A stretch of DNA of 32,000 nucleotides from Candidatus Baldrarchaeum yapensis. GTDB taxonomy: Archaea > Asgardarchaeota > Baldrarchaeia > Baldrarchaeales > Baldrarchaeaceae. A program made the translations under genes and the position numbers. Position 1 is the stretch's first letter. Every line of letters begins with the position of its first letter. The notes below the pieces were generated by a model, which was given only the letters and a program-made list of their open reading frames with translations, had not been told where the DNA came from and did no database searches. The stretch spans positions 1 through 32,000 of the forward strand of contig JAEOSH010000016.1 of assembly GCA_016840465.1 (NCBI GenBank). The letters are read 5' to 3'. Positions 14,377 through 29,651 of the stretch are shown one piece after another.

Positions 14377-16052
14377 TTACTGCAAAATTGCGCCTTTTGA
14401 GGGCGACGTTACATATTTCCGATATCTTGCAAGAATGGTTCCTTCTTTCACCCTATTCTCGACCTCTCGTGGTACTCTCCACTCCTCTCTTCGCCTTCCT
14501 AATTCTTTCTCGGGAACGAGAAGTTCGAGTTTCCTTCCGGTATATCTATGAGTATCTGATCCCCGTCCTCAACTAATGCTATAGGCCCGCCCTCGTATGC
14601 CTCGGGCGGTACATGACCTATGCATGGACCTCTTGTGGCGCCGCTGAACCTTCCATCGGTAACCAGTGCAACTTTATCCCCCAATCCCGATGAAATAACC
14701 GCTGCCGTCACCGATAGCATTTCTCTCATGCCCGGTCCTCCCTTTGGCCCCTCGTACCGTATTACGATCACTTCACCCTCTTTTATTGTCCCCATCAACG
14801 ACGACGTTGAACGCCTCCTCTTCGGAGTTAAATACGCGGGCCACACCCTTGAACTTGAGCATAGACTTGCTGACGGCGCTCTGTTTTACAACAGCCCCTT
14901 CTGGTGCAAGTGTACCATACAATATCGCTATGCCGCCCTCTCTCCTTACAGAATTGGAAACTGGTCTGATGATGTCGGTATTTCCCACGCGAGCGTCTTT
15001 GACATTTTCCCATACAGTCTTTCCGGTCACTGTAAGGCAGTTTTTCTTAATTAATCCCGCATCGCCCAGTACCTTGAGCACTGCTGGTACTCCACCCGCA
15101 CGGTCGAGATCCTCCAAGTGATATGGACCGGAGGGACTGAGTGCTGTAATTGTTGGCACTTTTCTGCTAATTTCGTCAAACGTTTGCAGGGAGAGTTCCA
15201 CACCAGCGCACTTTGCAATTGCGATCAGGTGGAGTATCGTGTTTGTTGAACCACCAAGCGCCATATCAACGGCTATTGCGTTTTCAAAGGCGTCCTCTGT
15301 AAGGATATCAGATGGACAAACATTCTTTTCAAGCAACTTCATGACACATCTTCCCGCGTTGCGGGCAACGTGTATCCTTCTTCTATCAACGGCCGGAATT
15401 GTCGATGAGCCGGGAAGCACGAGTCCTAGCGCCTCGGTAAGGATGTTCATCGTATTTGCGGTAAAGAGCCCGGCGCAACTTCCGCACGTGGGCATAGCAC
15501 ATCTTCCGATTTCATTTAACTCCTCCTCGCTCATAGTTCCTCTTTTAGCGGCTTCAACTACCTCGAATAGGTCCTTGAGATCAATTTTTCTGCCTTTAAA
15601 GGTTCCGGCAAGAGACGGGGCGCCATTTATGAAGATCGATGGAATATCCACCCGAGCTGCGGCCATCAGCATTCCTGGGACTATTTTATTGCAGTTAGTT
15701 ATGAACACGGCGGCATCAAAGCGGTGCGCCTCGAGCATTATCTCGACCGCGTCAGCGATTATGTCCCTACTGGGCAGGGAGTAACGCATATCAATATGCC
15801 CCATAGCTATTCCGTCACAAACTGCGATAACATTGAACTCCAGGGTACCCCGCCCATTTCCCTTATGCCTTCTCTGGCGGCTTCCGCAATGCTCCTAAGG
15901 TGTATATGGCCCGGAGAGGTCTCACTATAACTGTTGATGATTGCAATCAACGGTTTGCGGAAATCCGAGTCGTCGAGTCCGATTGCCCTAAAGAGCGCTC
16001 TATGAGGGATCCTCTCGGGGCCTACGTGTACGGTAACACTCCTATGCTTCAT
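14377..16052 (-). pseudogene. ilvD: Dihydroxy-acid dehydratase interrupted by three frameshifts
   Basis: Motifs [66 protein letters not shown] and TDGRFSG are spread over four frame segments. Single-base indels lie at about 15844, 14791 and 14535; restored stop TAA at 14377. Start is 16052 or 16076. Confidence 0.9.
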
Positions 16053-16679: not shown

Positions 16680-17384
16680 TTAGATTAGGCGGCTTATTAT
16701 TGCCAAGAATACGACCGCCAGCAATAACATCGCAATTGCGGCTATTATCAACAATATGAGTTCGCTCTCGGAGGGGTAATGAGGCATCTGCTCGGGGTGT
16801 GCTAGAAGTTCACCAGCTGTTTCTGGCGATATCACATCTCCCTTCACCGATGCACTTATTATGCTAATTATCGGTTCGGGCTCCTGCAACAGGTCGCCAT
16901 AAGCAGAGGGATCCGCCGGGTCTTCTCCCGCATGCTTTCTAAGGAAATAGCGCACCCACACCTCCTCGAGCAACGCACTGGATAAAAAATACTGTCTCAC
17001 CTTATCGGCGTATACTACGATATTGTCAGTCACCTGATCGTACATTATGGAGTAGGTAATGTTTCTTATCCTCACAAAGAACGGTCTGTTTTTCAGATAG
17101 TTTTTTAACGACCTCCAAAAGTCCTTGAATGCTATACGAAGGGCGTACTCGAGGTCGGTGAGATGTGATGGAACTTTTACTGGGCTTACTTCTATGAGGT
17201 CTCGGACGGTGAGGGGTTTCATGCAGAGGGGGCATGTTCCCTTTTCTTTTAACCACTGCATGATATGATTCTTATGACCCTTTACGTGACAGTACGGGCA
17301 TTCTACGATGGCATCGCTTTCCTTCAACACCTTAAAACATATTATGCATCTCTCCTGCTCGCGATCCTCGGCTCCTTCGCTCAT
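16680..17384 (-). CDS. RING-finger protein with a C-terminal transmembrane anchor
   Basis: C13-x2-C16, C29-x2-C32, H37-x2-H40, W44, C51-P-x-C54; terminal ILLIIAAIAMLLLAVVFLAIISRLI*. Confidence 0.82.
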   Translation of the reverse strand: MSEGAEDREQERCIICFKVLKESDAIVECPYCHVKGHKNHIMQWLKEKGTCPLCMKPLTVRDLIEVSPVKVPSHLTDLEYALRIAFKDFWRSLKNYLKNRPFFVRIRNITYSIMYDQVTDNIVVYADKVRQYFLSSALLEEVWVRYFLRKHAGEDPADPSAYGDLLQEPEPIISIISASVKGDVISPETAGELLAHPEQMPHYPSESELILLIIAAIAMLLLAVVFLAIISRLI

Positions 17385-17631: not shown

Positions 17632-18849
17632 GTGTTACTATCGCGTGGAAGGCTTCGGAAAGGGGGAAGAGTGGTGCTAGGAACCAGCATCGGGCGGGAG
17701 GTCACGGAAGTACTTAATAGGTATCGCATACACCCCGACACTCTGGCATCGTGGTTTAGATTGATAAATTTAAACGATAAACCATCCATTGGAAAAACTG
17801 AGCGACGTATCATGGCAATTTTGGCCGTTGCTCCTACCTTATCGAACAGGCAAATATCAAGAATTATCGGGATAAGTGAAAGTAGTGTTGCGTATCACAT
17901 GAAAAAGTTGAGGAATAAGTATGGCCTATGCGTAATGTCGCATTTTAACCCCTGTTTGGCGGGTTTAGAAAACATCCTAGTAATATTAAGAATGCCTCGT
18001 GATCGAGAGAGCAGAAGATTCCTCGGAAATGTCAATTCAAAGTTTTTGATGCTTGCGATGCGAGGGTCTCCTGACAGCGAAAAATATCAAGGCTATCTGC
18101 TTATGTATGCCGTTCCGAGGAATATAGGGACTAAAAGATTCATGAAGGAGTTCTGTGACGTTATCGGATCATACAAAGGGGAGGTCTATGCCTTCACGAT
18201 CAAGGGTGTGTTCACGGGAATCAACTTCGCGCTTCCGTATATTAGCACGTGGAAAGTTCCGCGCAACTGCCGTAATTACGATGCTAGTGAACTGACTCAT
18301 TTCCTTTCTGGGGACATTTTCTGGTATTCCGATAATGGGCATATCAGAGATAAAATAGATCTTCTCCTTTTTCTGCTAAAATCATACGACTTCAAAATGC
18401 GAAGTTCACAACTTGTCACACTGATGCACCGCATATTAGGCAAACGTCTATGTGATGCCGCTGTGAGGAGAAGAGTTAGGAAGTTGTCCGCAATGAACGC
18501 ATGGAGACCCTTCATTTGTTTCCGGAGACTAGGGCTCGACTCTTGTGTTGTATTGAATTTAATAGGGGATTTCGAGACGGTTGCCAGCATAATTATGAGT
18601 GCTTCTTGTTGTTTTCCTCAGTACTTTGCGTACATTCACGAGAAGGGTGCAGTTTTGCTGATCAACGTCTCACGTGCACTACTGGGGGAGATCAGTAAAA
18701 GGATTATGTCATTTGTGGAGGGGTGTGATGATCACCATTTCCTTGTAAGCTACGACAATGCGTTACCCCTGCTCAGGCTAGAAGTCATTGATATGTGGAG
18801 CAACGAGGAGAGGGGATGGCAAGTCGCCAGCATTTTGCGGAACACTTAA
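17632..18849 (+). CDS. Lrp/AsnC-like regulator with two HTH modules
   Basis: HTH1 ERRIMAILAVAPTLSNRQISRIIGISESSVAYHMKKL; a weaker second HTH-like segment ending LCDAAVRRRVRKL; each is followed by an alpha/beta domain. Exact start is uncertain. Confidence 0.65.
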   Translation: MLLSRGRLRKGGRVVLGTSIGREVTEVLNRYRIHPDTLASWFRLINLNDKPSIGKTERRIMAILAVAPTLSNRQISRIIGISESSVAYHMKKLRNKYGLCVMSHFNPCLAGLENILVILRMPRDRESRRFLGNVNSKFLMLAMRGSPDSEKYQGYLLMYAVPRNIGTKRFMKEFCDVIGSYKGEVYAFTIKGVFTGINFALPYISTWKVPRNCRNYDASELTHFLSGDIFWYSDNGHIRDKIDLLLFLLKSYDFKMRSSQLVTLMHRILGKRLCDAAVRRRVRKLSAMNAWRPFICFRRLGLDSCVVLNLIGDFETVASIIMSASCCFPQYFAYIHEKGAVLLINVSRALLGEISKRIMSFVEGCDDHHFLVSYDNALPLLRLEVIDMWSNEERGWQVASILRNT

Positions 18850-18952: not shown

Positions 18953-19816
18953 TTGAGCCAAAAGTATCGTGGGGCCCTTGCGGACCTTTTAGGGAATACG
19001 CTCGGAAGGGACAAACGGCTTCTGATAGCGGATGTATTTCTTCGCCATATCGAGGCAACTTGTAAGAAATGTCTTTCGAACAGAATAGTATGTGCGACAA
19101 GGCCCATTTGCGGAAAGGACAGGCCATTTTGCTCGATTCTCGTAGAAATAAATGCTAAAGATCTCATTAGTGAGTTCTGTTACAGGTGGATGCTGGTATC
19201 AGTACGGCAGACGATTCTTGGGAAGAAAATACTTCAAGACTTGTGCGTGTACGCGAAAGACCTGCCACATAGTATTGATAGGAAGAAAAAGCGCCTTCCG
19301 GAGGGTACCTCTTTTAATAAAATTGTCGAGGATCTCGCTGAGGCTTTGCGCGCGAATCACATAAAGTTTCATGTCGAGAACAGGGACATGGTGGCCGCGA
19401 TCGTCTCAGACAATTTCCTAGTATTGATAGATGGCGAAAAGGGAATTGCCCGGGTGAATCCGCGTAATTACGCGTTTTCGAAAAAGGAAGAAATAGAGGC
19501 AGTTTTGAAGGGAATGTCCGAGATAGAGGGAGTTAAACTTGATATTCGAGAGGAGTTCGAGGGTCTTTTGATATTAGAATTTGAACTTTCCAAGATCTCG
19601 CCACATCGCGCCGATGAAATAAAAGATTTACATGTGCCGCCCGAACTTGAAAAGTTCTGCCACCACATCGGGGTTACACGCTCAGATAACTCCGTGAAGG
19701 TGATAATAGACCTGCTGTTGAATCCCTTTCCGTCCATAACGGCTGGTGAGTTGATGAAGGTTTTTGATGTGATAAAGAAGCTGAGGACGGTGTTTTCTGC
19801 TGAGGAGAGGAGGTAG
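18953..19816 (+). CDS. Hypothetical protein with an N-terminal Cys cluster
   Basis: TTG start with GGAGGAG upstream; CKKC..C..C..C..C within about 45 aa; first gene of a tightly spaced run. Confidence 0.75.
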   Translation: MSQKYRGALADLLGNTLGRDKRLLIADVFLRHIEATCKKCLSNRIVCATRPICGKDRPFCSILVEINAKDLISEFCYRWMLVSVRQTILGKKILQDLCVYAKDLPHSIDRKKKRLPEGTSFNKIVEDLAEALRANHIKFHVENRDMVAAIVSDNFLVLIDGEKGIARVNPRNYAFSKKEEIEAVLKGMSEIEGVKLDIREEFEGLLILEFELSKISPHRADEIKDLHVPPELEKFCHHIGVTRSDNSVKVIIDLLLNPFPSITAGELMKVFDVIKKLRTVFSAEERR

Positions 19817-19821
19817 AGGAA

Positions 19822-22800
19822 TTGAAGGATGAGAAACCAACTTTAACACTCGTGCGGCAACTAGGAATGAGTGATAGAGAGGCTACCATTTACGAGGTTT
19901 TACTCAGATCGGGTGTGCTGACATCAGGTGAGATTTCCGCATTAACAGGTTTTCCGCTGGACGATGTTGAACGGACATTGGCTTCATTAGCGAAGAAAAA
20001 TGTGGTTTTGAAGGTTCCAGGGATCATTGACCGTTACGTGGCGATGCCTCCATTTATGCTCCTTGGCGAGACTTTGAGTACATGTAGGGAGGAGATTTTG
20101 AAGGCATATAAGCAGTTTTCTGACGTCATAAAGCGCATAGAGGGAGAAATAACGAAATTAGCCAAAGATTTCAGGGAAAATTCGAAGAAAATACTGGAGG
20201 ATGGTGTTAAAACTGTTAGTGAGAGGATTCCCGAGTTAATGAAGGACTTAGAGGAAATCTTATCTGAGAATCTCGAAAAGATCTCAAAGGACTTGGAAGA
20301 AGTTGAGAATAAGATAACCAACGTCATAGAGAGAGCCATAAAAGGCATATCGTCGGTTGTGAAGGAGGCTAGAAGTAGCGCGGAGCGAAGCATTTCGAAC
20401 GGAGAAAGAGCTTTAGTGGGAGTACTAGAAAGGACATTAGAGGAGGTAAATTCGACGATTGAGGAAAAGAGTGCGGAGCACGCCTCCGCCGGTCAGGAAG
20501 TTCTGGACGGTTTCCATGTGGAGGTCGAGAGGATAACGGGTGATGTCAGTAAGCAACTTGAGGCCCTCAAAAGCAACCTCATTGAGAGGGTTTCGGGAAT
20601 TCGATCCGACTTCTCAGAGACTTTTAAGTCCATGCTCGAGCGCTTTGAACAAATTTCTGCAGAGTTCACAGAGGTTTTGGAGGGATTAATGACCGGCATC
20701 GAGAGGGACGTACCGGGATCGCTTGGAAAGGTTCTCGAATTGCACCGAGACGTATTAGCAAAGACTAAGGAGAATATCAGTACTACCCTGTCAGAGGTCT
20801 TATCGCGTGTCCAGAGCGGAATTGCGTCCATGAAACGTGATATAACTACTTTTCTTACGGAGACCACAATGACTGAAGAGCAACAGCTCGGAGACCTTGA
20901 GAAGATGATCGATAACTTGCTCAAGGAGTTGCGAGAGACGTTGGATAACGCCTTTAATACAATTTCCAGTACAGTTGCCGGTGCAACAAAGCACGCGAAG
21001 ACAATGATAGAGCAAAACGCGAGAAGCCTAGTCGTTAAGGTCGCGCAAGTTGCCAGATCGTTCATAAATGCCTATTACACACACGCTGTGAGGTTCCGAG
21101 ACTCTGTGCTGAGCGCCATTTCAGACGAGTTTGATGCTCTAAAAGTGGAGTTTGACGGATTAAGGAGGAATCTCACGGAGAAAATAACGGATATTCTTGA
21201 AACCTACAAGAGCGGCTCTAATACTGTGATCAGAGAGATAGAAGGATGGGCCAGCACCACATTTTCGGATATAAGTGCAAATATGGAGAAATTCAGGTCA
21301 GATATCATTAAGATTATAAAGCAGACGAGAGATGCCGTTAATAAGAGAATTTCATCGGTTGCGATTGATAAAGATGTTTTCGGTGATCTCAATCAGGGAC
21401 TGGCGAGGATTTCGGATCTTGCAAAAAGAGCGCTTACTGGCATCATTAGTAATCTTGAGACCCATATCAACAGGCTCACTGATGTGTTGCACAGTTATAT
21501 CTCCTCTCAAATTTCAAGCCTGCGAGCAAGAATTGAGGCAGCCATGCATGAGGTGGAGGGGGCATCGGATCCCGTTAAATTTATGAGCGAAACTCTTGCG
21601 GAAATTGAGGAAATAATACGTACGATGGATGAGGGACTGAAGCAGAAGGTGAGTTTCGAGTTATCGAGGATGCGTCAGTCCGTTGACAGACTTTCATTAA
21701 CCCTAGAGAGCGATGTTGACACCTGGCAGAGGGATTTGGAACAACTTGTCGAGGACATTATGGGACAGATAAACTCGATGCTGAACTTTTCGGTAGATGT
21801 CGTGACTCGCACAATGGAAACTGCCGAGAGGAGAATTTCTTCATCTATGGAAGGTTTACAAAAACTCGTGAGCAGGTTAATAGAACACACGAAGAAGCAG
21901 ATAACATCCATAGTCAGTAGCGAAATCAGGGGGATTGAAAGAGAGACTGAAGCCTTCATTAACGGGCTGAAGGATACTTTTTCAAAATTCATCGAAAGTA
22001 TTTCGATGCTCGGTGGAAGAATTGGCGAGAAGATAAAGTCGGAACTTGAGTTTCTGAAGAGAATGGAGGAGATGGGCAAAAAGTTGGATGATGCGATAAT
22101 GGAGGTGTTTTCAGAGTATCAGAGTTCAATGGTCAAGGTCTTCGACGAGAGCGAGAAGGCAATAGAGTTGGCATTAGACAGCCTCAGGGAGTTAGACGAG
22201 GAAATAATAAGCGTCAGGAAGAGTTTTGAGAAGTCTTTCAAGTCGTTCATCGATGATGTGAAGCGCAGGATCGACGGCGCTGTAAAAGCCCTAGAGGGAT
22301 GCTTTGATGACGTTAGTAAAAGCATAGAGGATGCCATTCAGGAGGTGATGAAGATAGTTTCGCAAAATACCGACAGTTTAGAGAGGAGGGTCGATGGATT
22401 ATTCACCAGTGCAAGAAAAGAGATTATAGATAGGGCGAAGGAGAGGATAAGCAAATGTCACGATAGGATAATCAAAGTTGGTAGGCTGTACGCGGAAGAA
22501 TTGAAAACCGAGTCCTCCGCTATGAACTCGCTCCTCTCTGATATGCAGAACTCCCTTGATGTCTTAATATCGACTGGTACTAAGAATATTCACACTACGA
22601 TGACCTCGATAGAGGAAAAGGTTAGAAAGATGATGAGTGAACACACTGTAAAGGTAAAGAGCGCTCTTGATGACGTTAAAAAGAAGTTAAATGAAAGTAT
22701 AAACAACCTCGTTGCCAGCAGTAAAGATCTGCTGTCTAATATGAGTAAGGAAATAGGATCGACGCTAGACAACGTGAAAAAGAAGCATGAGGAGCTAGGG

Positions 22801-23538
22801 ACATCCATCGGGGCGGAAACGACCTCTACATTATCGAAAGTTTCGCCTCGTGTGTCTTCCCTCCTCGAGGAGTTTCGAAGAAAAGTAGAAGGAGATTTGA
22901 TGTCGGTTGCAAACGAAATATCTCTGAAGGCGAAGGCCCTTTCGCTGGAACTCGATGGCGCGGCATCGCAGATAATAGAGGGGGTTTCACGCGGATTGAA
23001 GCTTGCTCGCGTGGATGAACATATAAATGCTCTTGAGGATGAGATGAGAGATGCAGAAAACCTTATAAAGAGGCTACTGGAGGTTTCCGTGAGCATTGGA
23101 CCATATCTTGCGTCTAAAACGTGGTATTGCATCGGAGTAAATGCCATAATTGCACGTATCAGAGACATAATATCGAGAGCGGAGGAGAAGCTTGCAGTAA
23201 TGGCTCCACGGTTTTCTATGCTTGCAGATCTTGTGGATCCGCTATTGGAGGCCGGGCAGAGATGTAGAATTTTCGTGATAGCGGAAGTAAGCGATGATGA
23301 TGACCTGAAGGTGGCGGGCGAACTTTCAAGATCTGGGAACATACGAGTGAAAAGGGCGGCAACGGGCTCCTATTACTGTGTCCTAAGGGACGACAAAGAG
23401 GTTTTAGTGGCCCCGATGGAAGACGAGGATCGTGAGGCCATGGCTTTCACATCGCAACTGGATGGTTATGTATCGCTGATAAAGGAGATCTTTAACTTCT
23501 TTATGAGAAAGAGCACTAGGGTGATGCAGAAAAAGTGA
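19822..23538 (+). CDS. TrmB-family protein with a roughly 1000-aa alpha-helical insertion
   Basis: N-terminal TrmB wHTH (LGMSDREATIYEVLLRSGVLTSGEIS...RYVAMPP) and C-terminal TrmB effector-like domain (TWYCIG..IRDIISRAEEKL..RDDKEVLV..LIKEIFNFF) flank a Pro-poor amphipathic helical region of about aa 78-1099. Confidence 0.85.
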   Translation: MKDEKPTLTLVRQLGMSDREATIYEVLLRSGVLTSGEISALTGFPLDDVERTLASLAKKNVVLKVPGIIDRYVAMPPFMLLGETLSTCREEILKAYKQFSDVIKRIEGEITKLAKDFRENSKKILEDGVKTVSERIPELMKDLEEILSENLEKISKDLEEVENKITNVIERAIKGISSVVKEARSSAERSISNGERALVGVLERTLEEVNSTIEEKSAEHASAGQEVLDGFHVEVERITGDVSKQLEALKSNLIERVSGIRSDFSETFKSMLERFEQISAEFTEVLEGLMTGIERDVPGSLGKVLELHRDVLAKTKENISTTLSEVLSRVQSGIASMKRDITTFLTETTMTEEQQLGDLEKMIDNLLKELRETLDNAFNTISSTVAGATKHAKTMIEQNARSLVVKVAQVARSFINAYYTHAVRFRDSVLSAISDEFDALKVEFDGLRRNLTEKITDILETYKSGSNTVIREIEGWASTTFSDISANMEKFRSDIIKIIKQTRDAVNKRISSVAIDKDVFGDLNQGLARISDLAKRALTGIISNLETHINRLTDVLHSYISSQISSLRARIEAAMHEVEGASDPVKFMSETLAEIEEIIRTMDEGLKQKVSFELSRMRQSVDRLSLTLESDVDTWQRDLEQLVEDIMGQINSMLNFSVDVVTRTMETAERRISSSMEGLQKLVSRLIEHTKKQITSIVSSEIRGIERETEAFINGLKDTFSKFIESISMLGGRIGEKIKSELEFLKRMEEMGKKLDDAIMEVFSEYQSSMVKVFDESEKAIELALDSLRELDEEIISVRKSFEKSFKSFIDDVKRRIDGAVKALEGCFDDVSKSIEDAIQEVMKIVSQNTDSLERRVDGLFTSARKEIIDRAKERISKCHDRIIKVGRLYAEELKTESSAMNSLLSDMQNSLDVLISTGTKNIHTTMTSIEEKVRKMMSEHTVKVKSALDDVKKKLNESINNLVASSKDLLSNMSKEIGSTLDNVKKKHEELGTSIGAETTSTLSKVSPRVSSLLEEFRRKVEGDLMSVANEISLKAKALSLELDGAASQIIEGVSRGLKLARVDEHINALEDEMRDAENLIKRLLEVSVSIGPYLASKTWYCIGVNAIIARIRDIISRAEEKLAVMAPRFSMLADLVDPLLEAGQRCRIFVIAEVSDDDDLKVAGELSRSGNIRVKRAATGSYYCVLRDDKEVLVAPMEDEDREAMAFTSQLDGYVSLIKEIFNFFMRKSTRVMQKK

Positions 23539-23544
23539 TGGGCC

Positions 23545-24843
23545 ATGGCGGATGTAGCAGTATTACTGGCATATATGATACTACTGACCCTTGTTTACGG
23601 CGCGATAGTCAGCGAAGTACTTCCGAAAAGCGTAGCCGCTCTCCTAGGGGGAATTGCGGCAATAATAATCGGCAGGGTTGCGGGAATATTTGATGTTAGC
23701 GAGATAGTGAAATTCATAGACATGAAGGTGCTTCTCATAATAATCGGCATAATGATGTTTGTTGAAGTTGCTAGACGAAGTGGTATGTTTCAATTCATCG
23801 CACTATATATTATGAAGTTCGTGGGCTACAAGCCGAGAAGGGTGCTCATAATTCTATGTGTGCTGTCGGCAATGCTGTCAGCATTTATAGGGAACATAAC
23901 GGCGATGATTATAATCATATCTGTCACGACATTAACCCTGATACCACTGGGGGCAGACCCGATACCATTTCTCATTGCGATTTCCATAGTACTCGATCTT
24001 GGGGGCACAATAACTCTTATCGGGAGTCCTGTATCGATACTGATAGGATACTCGGCCAACTTCTCGTACATAGACTTTCTGATCTATTCGGCTCCCCTTG
24101 CGATGATACTTGTTTTGGTGCATATTCTATTTTTCCTGACGGTATTCAAGAAAACGATTCCACCTAGGTTTGATGTTGATCCGGAGATACTCGCTGAGTT
24201 GGATCCATGGATGGTAATAACAGATAGGGATCTCTTTTACAGATCGATTGCCATCTTCATCCTCACGGTAGTTCTCTTCATGACGTACGAGTTTCTCGAG
24301 TTATCTGCCGAGTTTGTTGCCCTAACGGGTGGTATATTGATGCTGTTCCTTGGATTGCGTGCAAGTGATCCCAAAGAGGTTTTTAAAGGAATTGAGTGGG
24401 AAGTAATCTTCTTTCTGCTGGGACTCTTTCTGCTGATGGGTGCGATTGAGAAATCAGGGCTACTAGAAGTGATTGCTGAGCAGGTAGTCCACCTCACGGG
24501 CGAGAACCTTCTCCTTACAATAATCTTAATAATGGGAGTGGCGTGTGTCCTTTCAGCGATGATCGATAACATACCAGTAACACTGATGATGATACCAATC
24601 ATAAAAACAATCGTCACCATGAGTGGTCTCCCAGCGACCCCTCTCTGGTGGGCACTCTTGTACGGCGTAATACTGGGTGGGAACCTGACGCCTATCGCCT
24701 CTCCCACAAAGATAATTGCTCTTACTGTACTCGAGAGAGAGGGATACAAAATTTCGTTTAAGGAGTTCATGAGGTATAGCATTCCGACTGTGCTCCTTTC
24801 CATGGCTGTAGCGGTTCCGTACCTCATGAAATTAGCGGGGTGA
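23545..24843 (+). CDS. ArsB/NhaD/SLC13-type (IT superfamily) anion or Na+/H+ permease
   Basis: LSAFIGNIT, GGTITLIGSPVSI, SAMIDNIP and LGGNLTPIASPTKII in a highly hydrophobic 432-aa protein. Confidence 0.9.
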   Translation: MADVAVLLAYMILLTLVYGAIVSEVLPKSVAALLGGIAAIIIGRVAGIFDVSEIVKFIDMKVLLIIIGIMMFVEVARRSGMFQFIALYIMKFVGYKPRRVLIILCVLSAMLSAFIGNITAMIIIISVTTLTLIPLGADPIPFLIAISIVLDLGGTITLIGSPVSILIGYSANFSYIDFLIYSAPLAMILVLVHILFFLTVFKKTIPPRFDVDPEILAELDPWMVITDRDLFYRSIAIFILTVVLFMTYEFLELSAEFVALTGGILMLFLGLRASDPKEVFKGIEWEVIFFLLGLFLLMGAIEKSGLLEVIAEQVVHLTGENLLLTIILIMGVACVLSAMIDNIPVTLMMIPIIKTIVTMSGLPATPLWWALLYGVILGGNLTPIASPTKIIALTVLEREGYKISFKEFMRYSIPTVLLSMAVAVPYLMKLAG

Positions 24844-25796
24844 TCTTATTGAGTGAGAAAAAGGCTAAGGCCAGAGAAGTGGAAGGACTGATGGAAAAAA
24901 TAATGGAAGAAGTCAGTAGGATGATGCCGGTCGTTGAGCCCCTAAAGCTAGCATTCGAGGTTCCATCCATCCAACACGTGGTTGCGCTTACGGGTGGTGA
25001 AAACCTCCACCCTAACACGGCAACCTTTGCTAAGGAGATTGCAAAGCGTCTGAATGCGGAAATCACAGTATTATTTCCCATGCGTGAGATCACTCCTGAT
25101 GATATCTTTAATGAACGTGCCGAGGAGGTTGCAAAGTATGCTGATGTGCTAAGAGAAGAAGGGATAAGAGTGAGGGAGTCTACCTGTTTTAAATATTCGG
25201 AATTAAAGGAGGTAGTTCAAGAGGTTAATACCAGAAAGGCCGATATGGTCCTTGTCCCCAAATGTTTGGGGGAGGAGGAAGTTAAGGAGAGATGCCACAT
25301 AAGCGATATCGTTCAGGTTCTGACAACCGAGTTGAACGTCCCGCTCTTCATAATAAGTGAGGAGGATATACTGCCCGTATCAATGCTTGATAATCTGCTC
25401 GTTCCAGTCAGACGTACTGACAGAAAGTTCGGAAACGTCGCGTTGAGCGCCGCACTTGCATCTAAGAAGGGTACTATTGAGATTTTCTCCGTCATAACTG
25501 AAGATGAAGTCGAGTCAGGGATGGAGAGTAGCGATAAGCAACGGAATCAGGTTATTAAATCGTTAAGAGAAAGAAGGGAGGCGTTCGTCACTTCTGTGGA
25601 AAAGGCTCTAGCAAAGTTCGTTTCCCCACAACGGATAAAGATGAGTGTGACTGTGGGTCATCTGGATGAGAAGATCATTGAACGCGCGGAGGAGACCAGG
25701 AGCGTGATCGTTGTCAATAAAGTGGGGAAAGTCGGAATAACCGGAATTTTAGAGGCATTAATGAGGGACGCAAAAGCTCTTATAATAGTGCCCTAA
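24840..25796 (+). CDS. Tandem universal stress protein (USP)-like domain protein
   Basis: HVVALTGG..FAKEIAKRLNAEITVLF, KADMVLVP, VLTTELNVPLFII, then a second repeat NLLVPV...; GTGA overlap with the permease stop. Confidence 0.65.
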   Translation: MILLSEKKAKAREVEGLMEKIMEEVSRMMPVVEPLKLAFEVPSIQHVVALTGGENLHPNTATFAKEIAKRLNAEITVLFPMREITPDDIFNERAEEVAKYADVLREEGIRVRESTCFKYSELKEVVQEVNTRKADMVLVPKCLGEEEVKERCHISDIVQVLTTELNVPLFIISEEDILPVSMLDNLLVPVRRTDRKFGNVALSAALASKKGTIEIFSVITEDEVESGMESSDKQRNQVIKSLRERREAFVTSVEKALAKFVSPQRIKMSVTVGHLDEKIIERAEETRSVIVVNKVGKVGITGILEALMRDAKALIIVP

Positions 25797-26706: not shown

Positions 26707-28008
26707 ATGGAAGGCCTTTACGAAGTTTTCGGCAATTTGCTGATGCGCTCATGTGAACGCTCCTTTATGAATCTGAGGGAGAAAGTCCGCCGGCACACGA
26801 AGGATATAAGAGAAGGAGAACGGGCGGATATTAACGTTGGATTTATCGATGGAAGTCTGAGTTTCGATGATCGAAGAGGAGTGGGTGTGTTCTTATTCTC
26901 AGCATGCGGACTGATAGTGGATGGGAAGTCGCTTAGAATGCATGAGTTCTTTTGTACTTCGAAATCTCCCGTTCCTCATATACTTTTTCCGAAATTTCTA
27001 GTTCAAACTCGCGGAAACAACCTCATGTCAATTTTCGAGTTGATGGTTGCACTTTCAATGATAAGAACGGAAAGCGCTCACTTGATTCTCATGGATGGCT
27101 CATATATCTCAACACTGCTCGCCCCAGCGGGTGCGTTGAGGGCGTTGTATAGGGACATAAGGAACCGGCTTGACAGACTACGAGTTCAGAGGTTCATAGA
27201 CGAGGTGAATTCATTCTTACAGGAGGTTATAGAGAAGAGATTTCCGGGAATTTTGGAGATGAAAGATGCCAAACGATGTTTCATCAACTTTCTTATGAGT
27301 TCTAGGAACATTGCGACCGATTTTTACCGGAGGTTGTACCATATATGTAGTGGTGCAGGCATTGGAGAGGTTTCAATGGATCTACTGAACTATTCAAACA
27401 TGTGTGTCGAGGAGAATTTCTTCCTTTTCCTTCTCGATTTCGTACTGGAAGAGGCAAAAGATAAGGGAATTGCTGTAGCATGGTTTGCGAAGGACAGTGA
27501 CAGTAGGTTCATCACAAGGGGGGATGACCATTTAAAGTGGTTGACCGACGAGGCATTTCTTGACGAGGTGTGGAAGGATCTGTCCAATGTTTACATTAGG
27601 ATTTCTGATATTTCCTCGCTTTCGCCGATCTCCCATGGGAGGGCGGCTGTGAGGAGCGTGGCGGATAAGGGTGACTGCATTTTTCAATATGACCTTGCGG
27701 AGAGGTTTTACAAAGAATGGGGAGGGTATGATGGAATATATGTGAAGTTTCTGAAAGGCCCGGTTTTCCAGATAACATTGCCTGCACACTTCTCCAGCGT
27801 CATTGATCGGATACCGTCGATCCTGTTGCCCATGTGCGAAAAGAGGACAGGTTGTCCTCGGCCGATAATCTATGTGCACTTCAAAGCCCTTATGAAGGAA
27901 AGCGTGGCAAGATTATTTGCAGATGAGTTATGGTTTAAAACCCCTAGGACAGAATGGTTGATTCGTGTCATGCTATCAAGGTCGGGAAGAAGGAGGATAG
28001 GTGTTTGA
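26707..28008 (+). CDS. nurA: NurA-family nuclease
   Basis: FIDGS, LILMDGS, FAKDSDSR and C-terminal GCPRPIIYVHFKA (GYP..AH-like); TTGA-coupled to the HerA gene. Confidence 0.8.
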   Translation: MEGLYEVFGNLLMRSCERSFMNLREKVRRHTKDIREGERADINVGFIDGSLSFDDRRGVGVFLFSACGLIVDGKSLRMHEFFCTSKSPVPHILFPKFLVQTRGNNLMSIFELMVALSMIRTESAHLILMDGSYISTLLAPAGALRALYRDIRNRLDRLRVQRFIDEVNSFLQEVIEKRFPGILEMKDAKRCFINFLMSSRNIATDFYRRLYHICSGAGIGEVSMDLLNYSNMCVEENFFLFLLDFVLEEAKDKGIAVAWFAKDSDSRFITRGDDHLKWLTDEAFLDEVWKDLSNVYIRISDISSLSPISHGRAAVRSVADKGDCIFQYDLAERFYKEWGGYDGIYVKFLKGPVFQITLPAHFSSVIDRIPSILLPMCEKRTGCPRPIIYVHFKALMKESVARLFADELWFKTPRTEWLIRVMLSRSGRRRIGV

Positions 28009-29651
28009 GTTCGGAAAAAATAGGAAGAGTTGTTAATGTTGTAGGGAGGAATCGCGTCACAATCGCTGTTAATGAGGACAAACTCGTGAAAGTTTCGAAG
28101 CCGGGTGTTTATGTCAAAATCCCCGTATTCGGGGTAACGTTATTCGGCGTTGTGACGAGTTTCTCTCTAAGTGATGAACTCTACAGAGCATCTAGAATTG
28201 TTGAGGAGTTCGAAGGGTACGGAGAGTTCCGGCTTTCGCGAAATGAAATTCTAGTAACGCTTGTTGGATCCATGGACGAGCATGGTAACATCAAAAGGGG
28301 AATTCCGCTACTGCCGAGACCCGGAGATCACGTTGAGCTGGTGGATACTGATACTCTCAAGAGGGTGTTTGAGAGCGGAGATGTTGAAATCGGCAGACTC
28401 AATACAAACTCCGACGTTAGGGTATTCTTAGACATAAACAAACTATGTTCTAGGCATCTGGCGATTCTTGCGATGACAGGTGCTGGAAAGTCAAACGCGC
28501 TTGCGGTTATACTCGGAGAACTGCTGAAAAAATTTCCATATGCAAGAGTACTGCTTATAGATACCCATAGTGAGTACGTATCGATGGCAAAAACGGAAGA
28601 TTTCAATGCTCGCGTTTTCACTCCGCTCAAACCGATGATAGAATTGCTGGAGAATCAGTTTGACGTGACCCCTCAAATATTTGAGGTGCCATATTGGGTT
28701 CTGAGCCTAGATGAATGGTATAGCTTACTGAGACTCGATACGAGGGCGACGAAGCAACGCATGTACCTACGTGATGGAATCAGAAAGATCAAGAGAGAGT
28801 TGGACATCAACGCAGGTGCAAACGATCCCCTCTATTTTGATATCAATGAACTGATTTCTAAGCTTAAATCGGGTAGAAAGGACGCATCATTAGAAGACTT
28901 ACTAAATAAGATGGAAGAGCTGCTGGAGGATGATGAGAAGAGGTTTATAACGGAACCTGAGGAGACCAAGGATCTTCTCGAGGATCTTAAGAGGGGCTAC
29001 TTGGCAAGCGGGCACAATGAAAAAGAAGCAATAAAGAGAGCGTCTTACGATCTATACTATCGTCTGGCAGAGAGGGTTCTGAAGGAGGGGCTTAACATAG
29101 TTGCTTTAGGCGGGCTGTCGGGCGATACCCAAGATGCCATCACCTCCACAATTTTAAGGATGATCTGGCGCCTGATAACAAATCTGAGATATCAGGGAGT
29201 CGTGTGGCCGACAATGATAGTTTTAGAGGAGGCGCACAACTATGCACCCTCGGGAAGGTATACTGCATCTAGAGGGGTCGTAGAAACCTTAGCAAAGGAG
29301 GGGCGTAAGTTCGGGATTTGCCTTGTTATAATATCACAGAGGCCTAGAGAACTCTCTGAAACCGTACTTGCACAGTGCGGAAACTTAATTGCACTCAGAA
29401 CTGTAAACCCCGCTGATCAGAACTACATTATCAGTAGCCTTGAGGAGGTGAACAAGGAGATAATTGAGGATCTCCCAGGGCTAGAGACCGGAGAAGCGAT
29501 AGTTTCAGGACCTGCGATAAGATTTCCTGCGATTGTGCAGGTTTATAACTTCAAGGAAAGGTTCGGAATAGAGTTAGGCGGGAAGGACATAGACTTTAGA
29601 ACTCACTGGATGCACGGCGCCGTTGGTGGGTCATTTGGAGAGGAGAAATGA
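28005..29651 (+). CDS. herA: HerA-family helicase/ATPase
   Basis: N-terminal HAS-barrel-like region, HLAILAMTGAGKS, IVLEEAHNYAP, KEGRKFG and SQRP. TTG start at 28005 behind AGGAGG. Confidence 0.92.
   Translation: MSSEKIGRVVNVVGRNRVTIAVNEDKLVKVSKPGVYVKIPVFGVTLFGVVTSFSLSDELYRASRIVEEFEGYGEFRLSRNEILVTLVGSMDEHGNIKRGIPLLPRPGDHVELVDTDTLKRVFESGDVEIGRLNTNSDVRVFLDINKLCSRHLAILAMTGAGKSNALAVILGELLKKFPYARVLLIDTHSEYVSMAKTEDFNARVFTPLKPMIELLENQFDVTPQIFEVPYWVLSLDEWYSLLRLDTRATKQRMYLRDGIRKIKRELDINAGANDPLYFDINELISKLKSGRKDASLEDLLNKMEELLEDDEKRFITEPEETKDLLEDLKRGYLASGHNEKEAIKRASYDLYYRLAERVLKEGLNIVALGGLSGDTQDAITSTILRMIWRLITNLRYQGVVWPTMIVLEEAHNYAPSGRYTASRGVVETLAKEGRKFGICLVIISQRPRELSETVLAQCGNLIALRTVNPADQNYIISSLEEVNKEIIEDLPGLETGEAIVSGPAIRFPAIVQVYNFKERFGIELGGKDIDFRTHWMHGAVGGSFGEEK

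Follow-up and report, generated by a model that had tools for sequence, protein, structure and literature searches.

What is the function of a protein that begins and ends like a TrmB-type regulator but carries about a thousand residues of amphipathic helix between its two ends? This question is raised by one gene at positions 19822..23538 (+) of the window analyzed here, a stretch of 32,000 nucleotides (nt) from contig JAEOSH010000016.1 of “Candidatus Baldrarchaeum yapensis” (Asgardarchaeota; GenBank assembly GCA_016840465.1). The gene is a single uninterrupted open reading frame (ORF) that starts with TTG and, stop codon included in the coordinates, encodes a protein of 1238 amino acids (aa), referred to here as P0001. 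No known prokaryotes are more closely related to eukaryotes than the Asgard archaea, and little has been learned about how their cells and chromatin are organized. An initial annotation made from the sequence had described this protein as a giant TrmB. We observe that P0001 is not a singular oddity but one member of a TrmB/TrmBL2-derived family that extends across the Asgard archaea and is present in almost every Asgard genome searched. As an explanation for the whole, we favor on balance a rod of fixed length that folds back on itself and serves as a spacer or tether. New in this work are the mirror-charge topology of the rod, the acidic replacement of the residues with which TrmB proteins read DNA, and a conserved Cys-rich partner encoded upstream.

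The ORF is a real gene with hundreds of relatives, and the observation is far beyond chance. Its TTG start is credible because a Shine-Dalgarno-like GGAGG motif (19809..19813, +), located within the 3' end of the upstream gene, lies 8 nt 5' of it, and because the “LG(L/M)S” motif of the first helix is spaced from it exactly as in homologs. Sequencing runs that contain this DNA are vent and sediment metagenomes, which may be the origin of the assembly, and no RNA run is listed among them.

Both termini match TrmB profiles, as had been proposed. With residues 1-120 scanned alone, Pfam PF01978 (TrmB) matches residues 13-77 at 39.5 bits (cut-off, 25.6), and with residues 1080-1238 scanned alone, PF11495 (Regulator_TrmB) matches residues ~1101-1212 at 27.4 bits (cut-off, 22.2). 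The N-terminal match corresponds to a winged helix-turn-helix (19858..20052, +), which is also predicted by AlphaFold2 (AF2) and is collinear with the structures 5bpd and 3qph; in alignment, residues 16-93 run collinear with TrmBL2, and the best PDB matches of P0001 by phmmer are TrmBL2 and TrmB structures. The C-terminal alpha/beta domain (residues 1099-1224; 23116..23493, +) has a phospholipase D (PLD)-like fold according to PF11495, a family profile, and Foldseek. The “effector domain” previously assigned to this end shrinks to its first subdomain: the PF11495 match spans only profile positions 3-114 of 233, positions 115-233 with the second, sugar-binding subdomain find no match in P0001, and the chain stops 14 aa past the first, PLD-like subdomain.

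The same picture emerges from relatives and from structure prediction. PF11495 matches 26 of 71 family C-domains, and a family profile built from these 71 matches TrmB (3qph, residues 87-201) and TrmBL2 (5box/5bpd, residues 116-259, which is to the end of the 263-aa chain). In the AF2 model of P0001 (residues 13-1212), the end domains reach a predicted local distance difference test (pLDDT) score of 75-88, and Foldseek relates the C-domain with probability 1.0 to TrmBL2, FAM83, Nuc, and Zucchini, with PLD1/2 also matched. P0033, a family member of 450 aa, superimposes on 2f5t_X in VIA-align (Z 16.4; root mean square deviation, 2.5 Å over 131 residues), the matched part being the first subdomain of the TrmB effector domain. 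The catalytic HKD motif (HxKx4D) of the PLD superfamily is absent, with no His-x-Lys at the corresponding place, where the family alignment holds a conserved RDxEEVLxAP. Because the C-terminal match covers only the first, PLD-like half, these profiles assign P0001 to the TrmBL2 type of architecture: a winged helix-turn-helix, a helix, and a PLD-like domain, with no sugar-binding subdomain. This layout, with a dimerization helix in the middle, has been described for TrmBL2 (PMC4877046, PMC4158304). P0001 does not match the NCBIfam equivalog model for TrmBL2 (NF041141), scoring 16 bits where 530 are required. In ordinary TrmB and TrmBL2, the position of the insert is taken by only a short dimerization helix (PMC4158304, PMC4877046), in line with the short coiled coil that the initial annotation had named for TrmB proteins, and the connecting helix of P0001, at ~1015 residues compared to ~30 in TrmBL2, is ~30 times longer.

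The insert was earlier described as containing roughly five prolines, no transmembrane segment, and no Walker motifs, and all three points hold. Between nt 20053 and 23118 (residues 78-1099) there are exactly five prolines (137, 298, 584, 1009, and 1094), no 19-residue window exceeds a Kyte-Doolittle value of 1.26, there is no signal peptide, and Walker A ([AG]x4GK[ST]) is absent anywhere in P0001. The hydrophobicity Fourier spectrum of residues 78-1100 displays one dominant peak at 3.66-3.68 residues (11/3), with a power of 509 at 3.67 compared to a maximum of 108 in 50 shuffles, and no heptad peak at 3.5. This agrees with the earlier proposal of a rod of tens of nanometers with an 11-residue repeat. 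Written in rows of 11, the sequence places hydrophobic residues at hendecad positions a, d, e, and h, and Fourier analysis, register, and AF2 together delimit a helical hendecad rod at residues 78-1092 (20053..23097, +). The local phase is constant from residue 81 to ~510, or 39 hendecads in succession. Beyond this stretch it changes abruptly or slowly at four places: ~515, ~590, 741-807 (where the change is gradual), and ~1065. AF2 predicts 976 of the 1015 insert residues (96%) as helical, distributed over seven helices (78-305, 310-512, 524-538, 545-575, 584-820, 828-1058, and 1062-1092), so that the “continuous” helix of about 1000 aa turns out to be nearly continuous, with six short breaks. 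A comparison of the four long AF2 helices, with hendecad-block shuffles as the reference, revealed no internal duplication beyond the hendecad (best z, 3.6; most, <2).

Several profiles match the rod, and we judge that these matches reflect its periodicity. They comprise Pfam Apolipoprotein (PF01442), with 114.2 bits against a cut-off of 90 in 7 stretches of P0001, for which composition also contributes in our judgment, as well as ApoLp-III (56 bits), Baculo_PEP_C, and the ZorA models of NCBIfam and PADLOC, which match through their tail regions only (49 against an NCBIfam cut-off of 250). Among PADLOC defense systems, we observe nothing but coiled-coil similarity to ZorA tails and LmuB.

A word-indexed homolog search with full P0001 returned P0001 alone, and relatives were recovered by exhaustive search, which yielded 241 representatives at E <1e-3. 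Among the best 150 of these 241, 108 contain both end domains. A survey of insert lengths among homologs, proposed with the initial annotation, gives a range of 100-1694 aa with discrete length classes at ~541, 713, 753, 866, 1082, 1255, and 1543 aa. The periodicity peak falls at 3.60-3.72 (median, 3.67) in 94 of 95 relatives with inserts of >300 aa. The 14 clusters of the 1082-aa class have a median pairwise identity of 15%, and yet their total lengths stay within 1296-1316 aa and their inserts within 1080-1091 aa; three members of this class (P0005, P0006, and P0009) run without a phase slip across ~1050 residues, or ~96 hendecads. Other length classes likewise keep their length despite sequence divergence, and in orthologous groups the rod varies by just a few residues. 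The conserved property of the rod is its length and not its sequence. That the length stays constant while the sequence changes almost wholly indicates a mechanical or measuring function under direct selection.

The family is distributed throughout the phylum. The full P0001 query matches 40 of 41 related genomes, and the C-domain profile matches 395 of 400 phylum genomes, including all 90 of high quality, usually with 2-7 matches in each, the ORFs concerned being chiefly 750-1800 aa long. Outside the phylum, the distribution was judged from source names and Atlas taxa. Source names of members include Loki-, Hel-, Frey-, Sigyn-, Heimdall-, Hod-, and Njordarchaeota, “Promethearchaeota,” and “Asgard group,” the single non-Asgard name being that of one metagenome-assembled genome labeled Bathyarchaeia, and in the Atlas the nearest long clusters fall in Promethearchaeota. 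The Baldrarchaeum genome itself holds one giant copy; a second was not found there, since long ORFs on contigs C45 and C54 with weak winged-helix matches lack the family C-domain. A literature search found no description of long TrmB-like proteins or of an architecture of the P0001 type, and the review of the TrmB family covers proteins of ~260-350 aa only (PMC4158304). With TrmB-like termini, and with no published account of the architecture found, the starting proposal is left standing in its outline.

Some relatives depart from the common plan. Contig C85 of the same genome (1696-2433, -) contains a 246-aa ORF with a family-type C-domain (E 1e-16) and no match to the family N-domain profile, which may be a short, differently headed relative. 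P0071, P0097, and P0144, with inserts of ~257 aa, form a small length class with a heptad peak at 3.5. Extra residues follow the C-domain in P0144 (~190) and in P0110 (~300), the latter with a peak at 3.47.

How is such a rod folded? For each of the 92 members with inserts of ≥450 aa, net charge along the insert was averaged in an 11-residue window, and the resulting profile was correlated with its reflection about every possible axis (Fisher z), using hendecad-block shuffles as the control; a 7-residue window was dropped, being dominated by the hendecad oscillation and small-n edges. The strongest anticorrelation falls at 0.45-0.52 of the insert in 45 of the 92 members, compared to 8% of shuffles, and the axes cluster tightly at 0.47-0.49, which is the midpoint of the helical part. 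The signal persists after high-pass filtering in 37 of the 92. Removal of the initial 20% of the insert leaves the axis at its original residue in 27 members and shifts it to the new centre in only 10; since it mostly stays fixed, the signal is not a centre artefact. Anticorrelated charge around the midpoint implies that the two halves of the rod pair antiparallel, and the family-wide pattern supports halves that are length-matched and charge-complementary in mirror register. The rod of the initial annotation is thereby kept, but as more than a single long strand, since its two halves pair antiparallel.

In P0001, the unfiltered axis lies at 583.5 (r = -0.38 over 495 pairs), coinciding with the geometric midpoint at 585, an AF2 break at 576-583, and G580/P584. 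After high-pass filtering the axis is at 547, adjoining the AF2 break at 539-544. Both candidate axes are within an irregular central zone (residues 513-591; 21358..21594, +) that is marked by AF2 breaks at 513-523, 539-544, and 576-583 with a pLDDT of 30-45, by phase shifts, and by the mirror axis, which would be the turning point of a folded-back arm or else the dyad of an antiparallel dimer. In the shorter P0033, the AF2 monomer (pLDDT, 74.9; predicted template modeling score [pTM], 0.50) divides the 225-aa insert into helices 78-184 and 191-303, and the break falls at the member's own mirror axis, where there is neither Gly nor Pro. Compared over its whole chain by Foldseek, the P0001 model best matches Smc, MukB, and JetC, at very low TM-scores of 0.07-0.14.

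In both arms of P0001, helix-destabilizing patches also lie about equally far from the axis at 583.5: P298/G299/G302 at -282 to -286 and G859 at +275, and the Thr-rich stretch 342-351 at ~-237 and G819/G826 at +235 to +242, with AF2 breaks or low pLDDT nearby (302-315 and 790-861). These may mark an “elbow” in both arms, or may be due to chance, as the rod contains 45 Gly.

Immediately upstream lies a gene for a Cys-rich protein of 287 aa (18953..19816, +; stop codon, 19814-19816), with 5 nt between its stop and the start of the giant gene, a spacing which suggests coupled translation. The protein carries the motif C-x2-C-x6-C-x5-CG..R ... FC. It has no match in Pfam, PADLOC, or Atlas features, and its Atlas model is poor (pLDDT, 0.50). 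Homologs that share the C-x2-C-x6-C-x5-CG..R motif lie directly 5' of the giant gene in four other genomes, on the same strand with gaps of -6 to 100 nt (loci L021, L023, L025, and L032), so that this gene adjoins the giant gene in 5 of 21 loci, from four taxonomic families (its own and three further).

Taken as a whole, these observations are most likely explained by a fixed-length structural rod with a TrmBL2-derived head that acts as a spacer or tether. P0001 has retained the ancestral layout of winged helix, dimerization helix, and PLD-like domain without the sugar-binding subdomain, while the connecting helix has expanded from ~30 to ~1015 residues of hendecad coiled coil. The rod would fold back in the irregular zone at residues ~540-590. 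Its arm would then comprise ~460-505 residues, which at 0.148 nm per residue amounts to 68-75 nm, and the winged helix would meet the PLD-like domain of its own chain in a TrmBL2-like head. The resulting layout would resemble an SMC protein minus its ATPase. Heads may dimerize as in TrmB and TrmBL2, and the protein would not be a sugar-sensing transcription factor but a structural element of fixed length (a rod, spacer, or tether), with its head anchored on DNA or on a protein partner and probably in concert with the co-translated Cys-rich protein.

Several observations weigh against this fold-back tether, some of which concern the head and others the rod. Alignment to solved structures places “LDDVER” in the recognition helix of P0001 opposite “NRVYD” in TrmB and “PRTYD” in TrmBL2, with a canonical TrmB of the same genome having “PRPNVYE” there. 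TrmB Tyr50, reported to be essential for DNA recognition (PMC4158304), and the neighboring Arg align to Glu and Asp in P0001. Among 95 family members, none has Tyr in the Tyr50 column, which instead holds Glu (25), Gln (13), Lys (12), and also Arg, Asp, and others, and the columns just before are mostly acidic. The net charge of the N-domain has a family median of -1, and P0001 is strongly acidic throughout (N-domain, -2; insert, -33; C-domain, -5). With acidic residues in place of the DNA-reading Tyr and Arg, binding to DNA is not to be taken for granted, and for the same reason a role in chromatin, one of those entertained in the initial annotation, is weakened. Anchoring of the head on DNA appears doubtful from these alignments, and the label “DNA-binding” comes from ancestry.

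The head might therefore act off DNA altogether, as a protein-protein module on a rod that is a cytoskeletal or organizing element, much as winged helices have been re-used in RPC82/RPC62, cullins, and ESCRT-II. Apart from the acidic or polar recognition helix found family-wide and the missing Tyr, such a protein-binding scaffold is consistent with an N-domain net charge of zero or below in 68% of members, an N-domain score of 30 bits on Pfam HTH_9 (the RPC82 winged helix), a match of a family-member model to RPC62 (Z, 11.0), and the presence of a co-translated partner. Basic residues conserved in and around the wing in the family alignment (K59, K/R63-64, and R71) speak against it, as they could still grip the DNA backbone in the non-specific manner of TrmBL2, and such contacts via the wing appear possible. 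We regard a scaffold off DNA as the most credible of the alternatives, if still rather doubtful.

The remaining difficulties concern the rod. AF2 models it with low confidence (pLDDT, ~60; pTM, 0.35) and introduces additional breaks at 306-309 and 821-827. The mirror signal of P0001 alone is not significant, as 12% of block shuffles reach it, and it offers two candidate axes. The phase slips in its C-terminal half (~741-807 and ~1065) are unmirrored in the N-terminal half. Across the family, Gly and Pro are missing from the 8 residues on either side of the axis in about half of the members where that axis is clear, and in 13 of the 14 members of the 1082-aa class the hendecad phase is kept through the centre.

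Since breaker-free axes and an unbroken phase fit a continuous helix, we keep an intermolecular dimer alongside the fold-back. In such an extended antiparallel homodimer, two continuous helices of ~1000 residues would form a strut of ~150 nm that could bridge distant sites or polymerize end-to-end. Each of its ends would carry one winged helix and one PLD-like domain, contributed by different chains. The dimerization helices of TrmB do pair antiparallel (Phe81/Ile91' and Phe84/Leu88'; PMC4158304), and the insert is located exactly in that helix. The mirror-charge signal fits this arrangement as well as it fits a hairpin, and the continuum of insert lengths from 100 to 1694 aa would be easily reached by single insertions. 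However, the AF2 monomers of P0001 and P0033 break at the axis, although a monomer run cannot show a dimer, and a two-copy prediction of P0033 (ipSAE, 0.01-0.03) speaks neither way on dimerization. The centre of P0001 contains G580/P584 and a 75-residue irregular zone, and prolines across the family number 53 at 0.44-0.52 of the insert compared to ~11-12 per equal-sized bin elsewhere, an enrichment of the midpoint that, in the histograms of helix breakers and prolines, is mild and not decisive for locating turns. A strut would also hold the winged helices 150 nm apart, giving up the paired winged-helix geometry of TrmBL2 (PMC4877046). All things considered, we think the strut unlikely, with a fold-back within one chain remaining our preferred topology.

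Three further explanations fare considerably worse. P0001 might be a conventional TrmB regulator of the genes next to it, with the long helix as a linker or as the signal relay mentioned in the initial annotation. Four genes are tightly packed here on the + strand: those for the Cys-rich protein and the giant protein, a CitMHS-family permease (23545-24843, +; Pfam CitMHS, 231 bits) that begins 6 nt after the stop of the giant gene, and a USP-like protein (24840-25796, +; weak Pfam Usp match, 23.9 bits) that overlaps the permease by 4 nt. TrmB regulators often adjoin transporters (PMC4158304). However, the sugar/effector-binding subdomain is absent and the DNA-reading residues are lost, and retention of an exact rod length at 15% identity is unexpected for a linker. 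The permease/USP arrangement is conserved only within the same order (L021 and L038), in contrast to the phylum-wide giant gene, and probably reflects a local operon rather than a trait of the family. A regulator of this kind is very improbable.

About as improbable is a parallel, in-register coiled-coil dimer or tetramer reminiscent of tetrabrachion or an ATPase stalk, in which the winged helices and the PLD-like domains would lie 150 nm apart. Hendecads are known in parallel rods such as the peripheral stalk of rotary ATPases (PMC3293630), and the asymmetric phase slips of P0001 would pose no problem, but the mirror-charge axis at the midpoint and the outcome of its controls would be unexpected. 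Least probable of all is a lipid- or membrane-bound amphipathic helix of the apolipoprotein, perilipin, or synuclein type with its 11-mers flat on a surface, which is favored by the PF01442 and ApoLp-III scores and by an 11/3 periodicity that is a hallmark of such helices, but is contradicted by the irregular spacing of the five prolines with no Pro-punctuated 22-mers, by a narrow a-d-e-h stripe of Leu, Ile, Val, and Phe as in coiled-coil cores, by a charge complementarity that points to helix-helix pairing, by a fixed rod length with no obvious rationale on a lipid surface, and by the lack of a signal peptide or transmembrane segment in P0001.

What would a fixed-length tether mean for Asgard biology? 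More speculatively, and in our estimate improbably, these proteins may be non-ATPase, SMC-like molecular rulers that are universal to Asgard archaea, with several fixed-length paralogs per genome tethering or spacing chromosomal DNA or cell structures. Should this be true, arms of ~40 to 125 nm would be combined with lineage-specific partners such as the Cys-rich protein, and the family would represent a prokaryotic forerunner, by analogy, of the long coiled-coil tethers and scaffolds of eukaryotes. An architectural function of any kind would make these proteins a new class of prokaryotic scaffold. Homologs in cultured Asgard strains would also make such a scaffold an accessible target. Three labels are misleading for genes of the rod family: “helix-turn-helix domain-containing protein,” “sugar-specific transcriptional regulator TrmB,” and the Pfam name “Apolipoprotein.”

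Other features of the window are described here in their own right. A 405-aa protein (17632-18849, +) carries an HTH_24/AsnC-type helix-turn-helix at residues 55-95 next to ~300 residues that belong to no family, and it has no counterpart beside the giant gene in other loci. At 16680-17384 (-), a 234-aa protein combines an N-terminal RING-H2 finger (PF13639, 31 bits) with a hydrophobic anchor at its C terminus (LILLIIAAIAMLLLAVVFLAII) and resembles a RING E3-like protein held in the membrane. Three other Asgard loci (L022, L023, and L032) contain a homolog of it, 4-7 kb away from the giant gene. An ORF for a dihydroxy-acid/6-phosphogluconate dehydratase (14773-15804, -) is apparently truncated, its N-domain profile being matched from position 52 on and its C-domain over 63 of 191 positions, and may be a fragment, a frameshift, or a pseudogene. 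Downstream, a NurA-HerA pair (26707-29651, +) has no adjacent Mre11/Rad50. The closest named homologs of this HerA are from Thermoproteota (Thermofilaceae, 47-50% identity, compared to 41% for Asgard Njordarchaeia), which may reflect gene transfer or the position of the lineage. Two antisense ORFs within the giant gene (20493-21065, -, 190 aa; 22590-23342, -, 250 aa) are most likely not genes but shadows of a purine-rich coding strand, on which the GC skew and the AT skew alike are strongly positive from 19 to 24 kb.

Among known systems, the apolipoproteins A-I/A-IV/E and apolipophorin III share with P0001 an amphipathic 11-mer periodicity. The hallmark of apolipoproteins A1/A4/E is a series of tandem 22-mers punctuated by Pro in a secreted protein. 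P0001 lacks both these 22-mers and a secretion signal, has a hydrophobic stripe of the coiled-coil type, and is cytoplasmic with a winged helix-turn-helix at its N terminus, so that of the apolipoprotein-like 11/22-mer initially proposed only the 11-residue periodicity survives; the likeness is an analogy through periodicity and not homology. Closer in their core are the hendecad rods of the ZorA tail of Zorya, the tetrabrachion stalk, the A/V-ATPase peripheral stalk, and FilP/Scy, which likewise combine an 11/3 repeat with a-d-e-h packing. These are parallel oligomers on membrane or motor parts, whereas P0001 has no S-layer anchor, transmembrane segment, or MotA/ExbB-type domain such as the transmembrane channel domain of ZorA, and its halves appear to pair antiparallel.

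The sugar-sensing TrmB and TrmBL1 (3qph and 2f5t) share with P0001 the PF01978 winged helix, the first subdomain of the effector domain, and a helix after the winged helix that pairs antiparallel, and differ from it by their beta-barrel sugar-binding subdomain, by a Tyr50 that is Glu in P0001, and by a helix that is ~30 times shorter. The closest known protein is TrmBL2 (TK0471/PF0496; PDB 5box, 5bpd, 5bpi, and 5bqt), a chromatin protein of Thermococcales that coats DNA non-specifically at high occupancy, forming a stiff filament, and is a tetramer (PMC4877046). P0001 has its domain order, with an amphipathic helix at the dimerization-helix position and a PLD-like C-domain, but is acidic, belongs to Asgard archaea and not Thermococcales, replaces “PRTYD” by “LDDVER,” and extends the helix from ~30 to ~1015 aa.

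The closest known architecture is the SMC arm, as found in Smc, MukB, JetC, and Rad50 and in ClsN and Sph1-4. The haloarchaeal Sph (“SMC-like”) proteins with their RdfA partner were considered as members of the same family and rejected, since Sph are archaeal SMC-related proteins (ASRPs) headed by an ATPase; ASRPs carry Walker motifs (PMC9389158). P0001 has no SMC, Rad50, or AAA match in Pfam. It lacks the Walker A/B ATPase head, the hinge, and the zinc hook (no CxxC in the rod), follows a strict hendecad where SMC proteins are mostly heptad, and bears a head of winged helix-turn-helix and PLD-like domain. Common to both is a coiled-coil length that is kept while the sequence drifts; if the rod folds back, they would also share an arm of length-matched antiparallel helices, with N- and C-domains joined in one head. 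The family thus appears to have been built from a known chromatin protein, TrmBL2, whose DNA-reading residues were lost while an SMC-like, motorless arm was gained.

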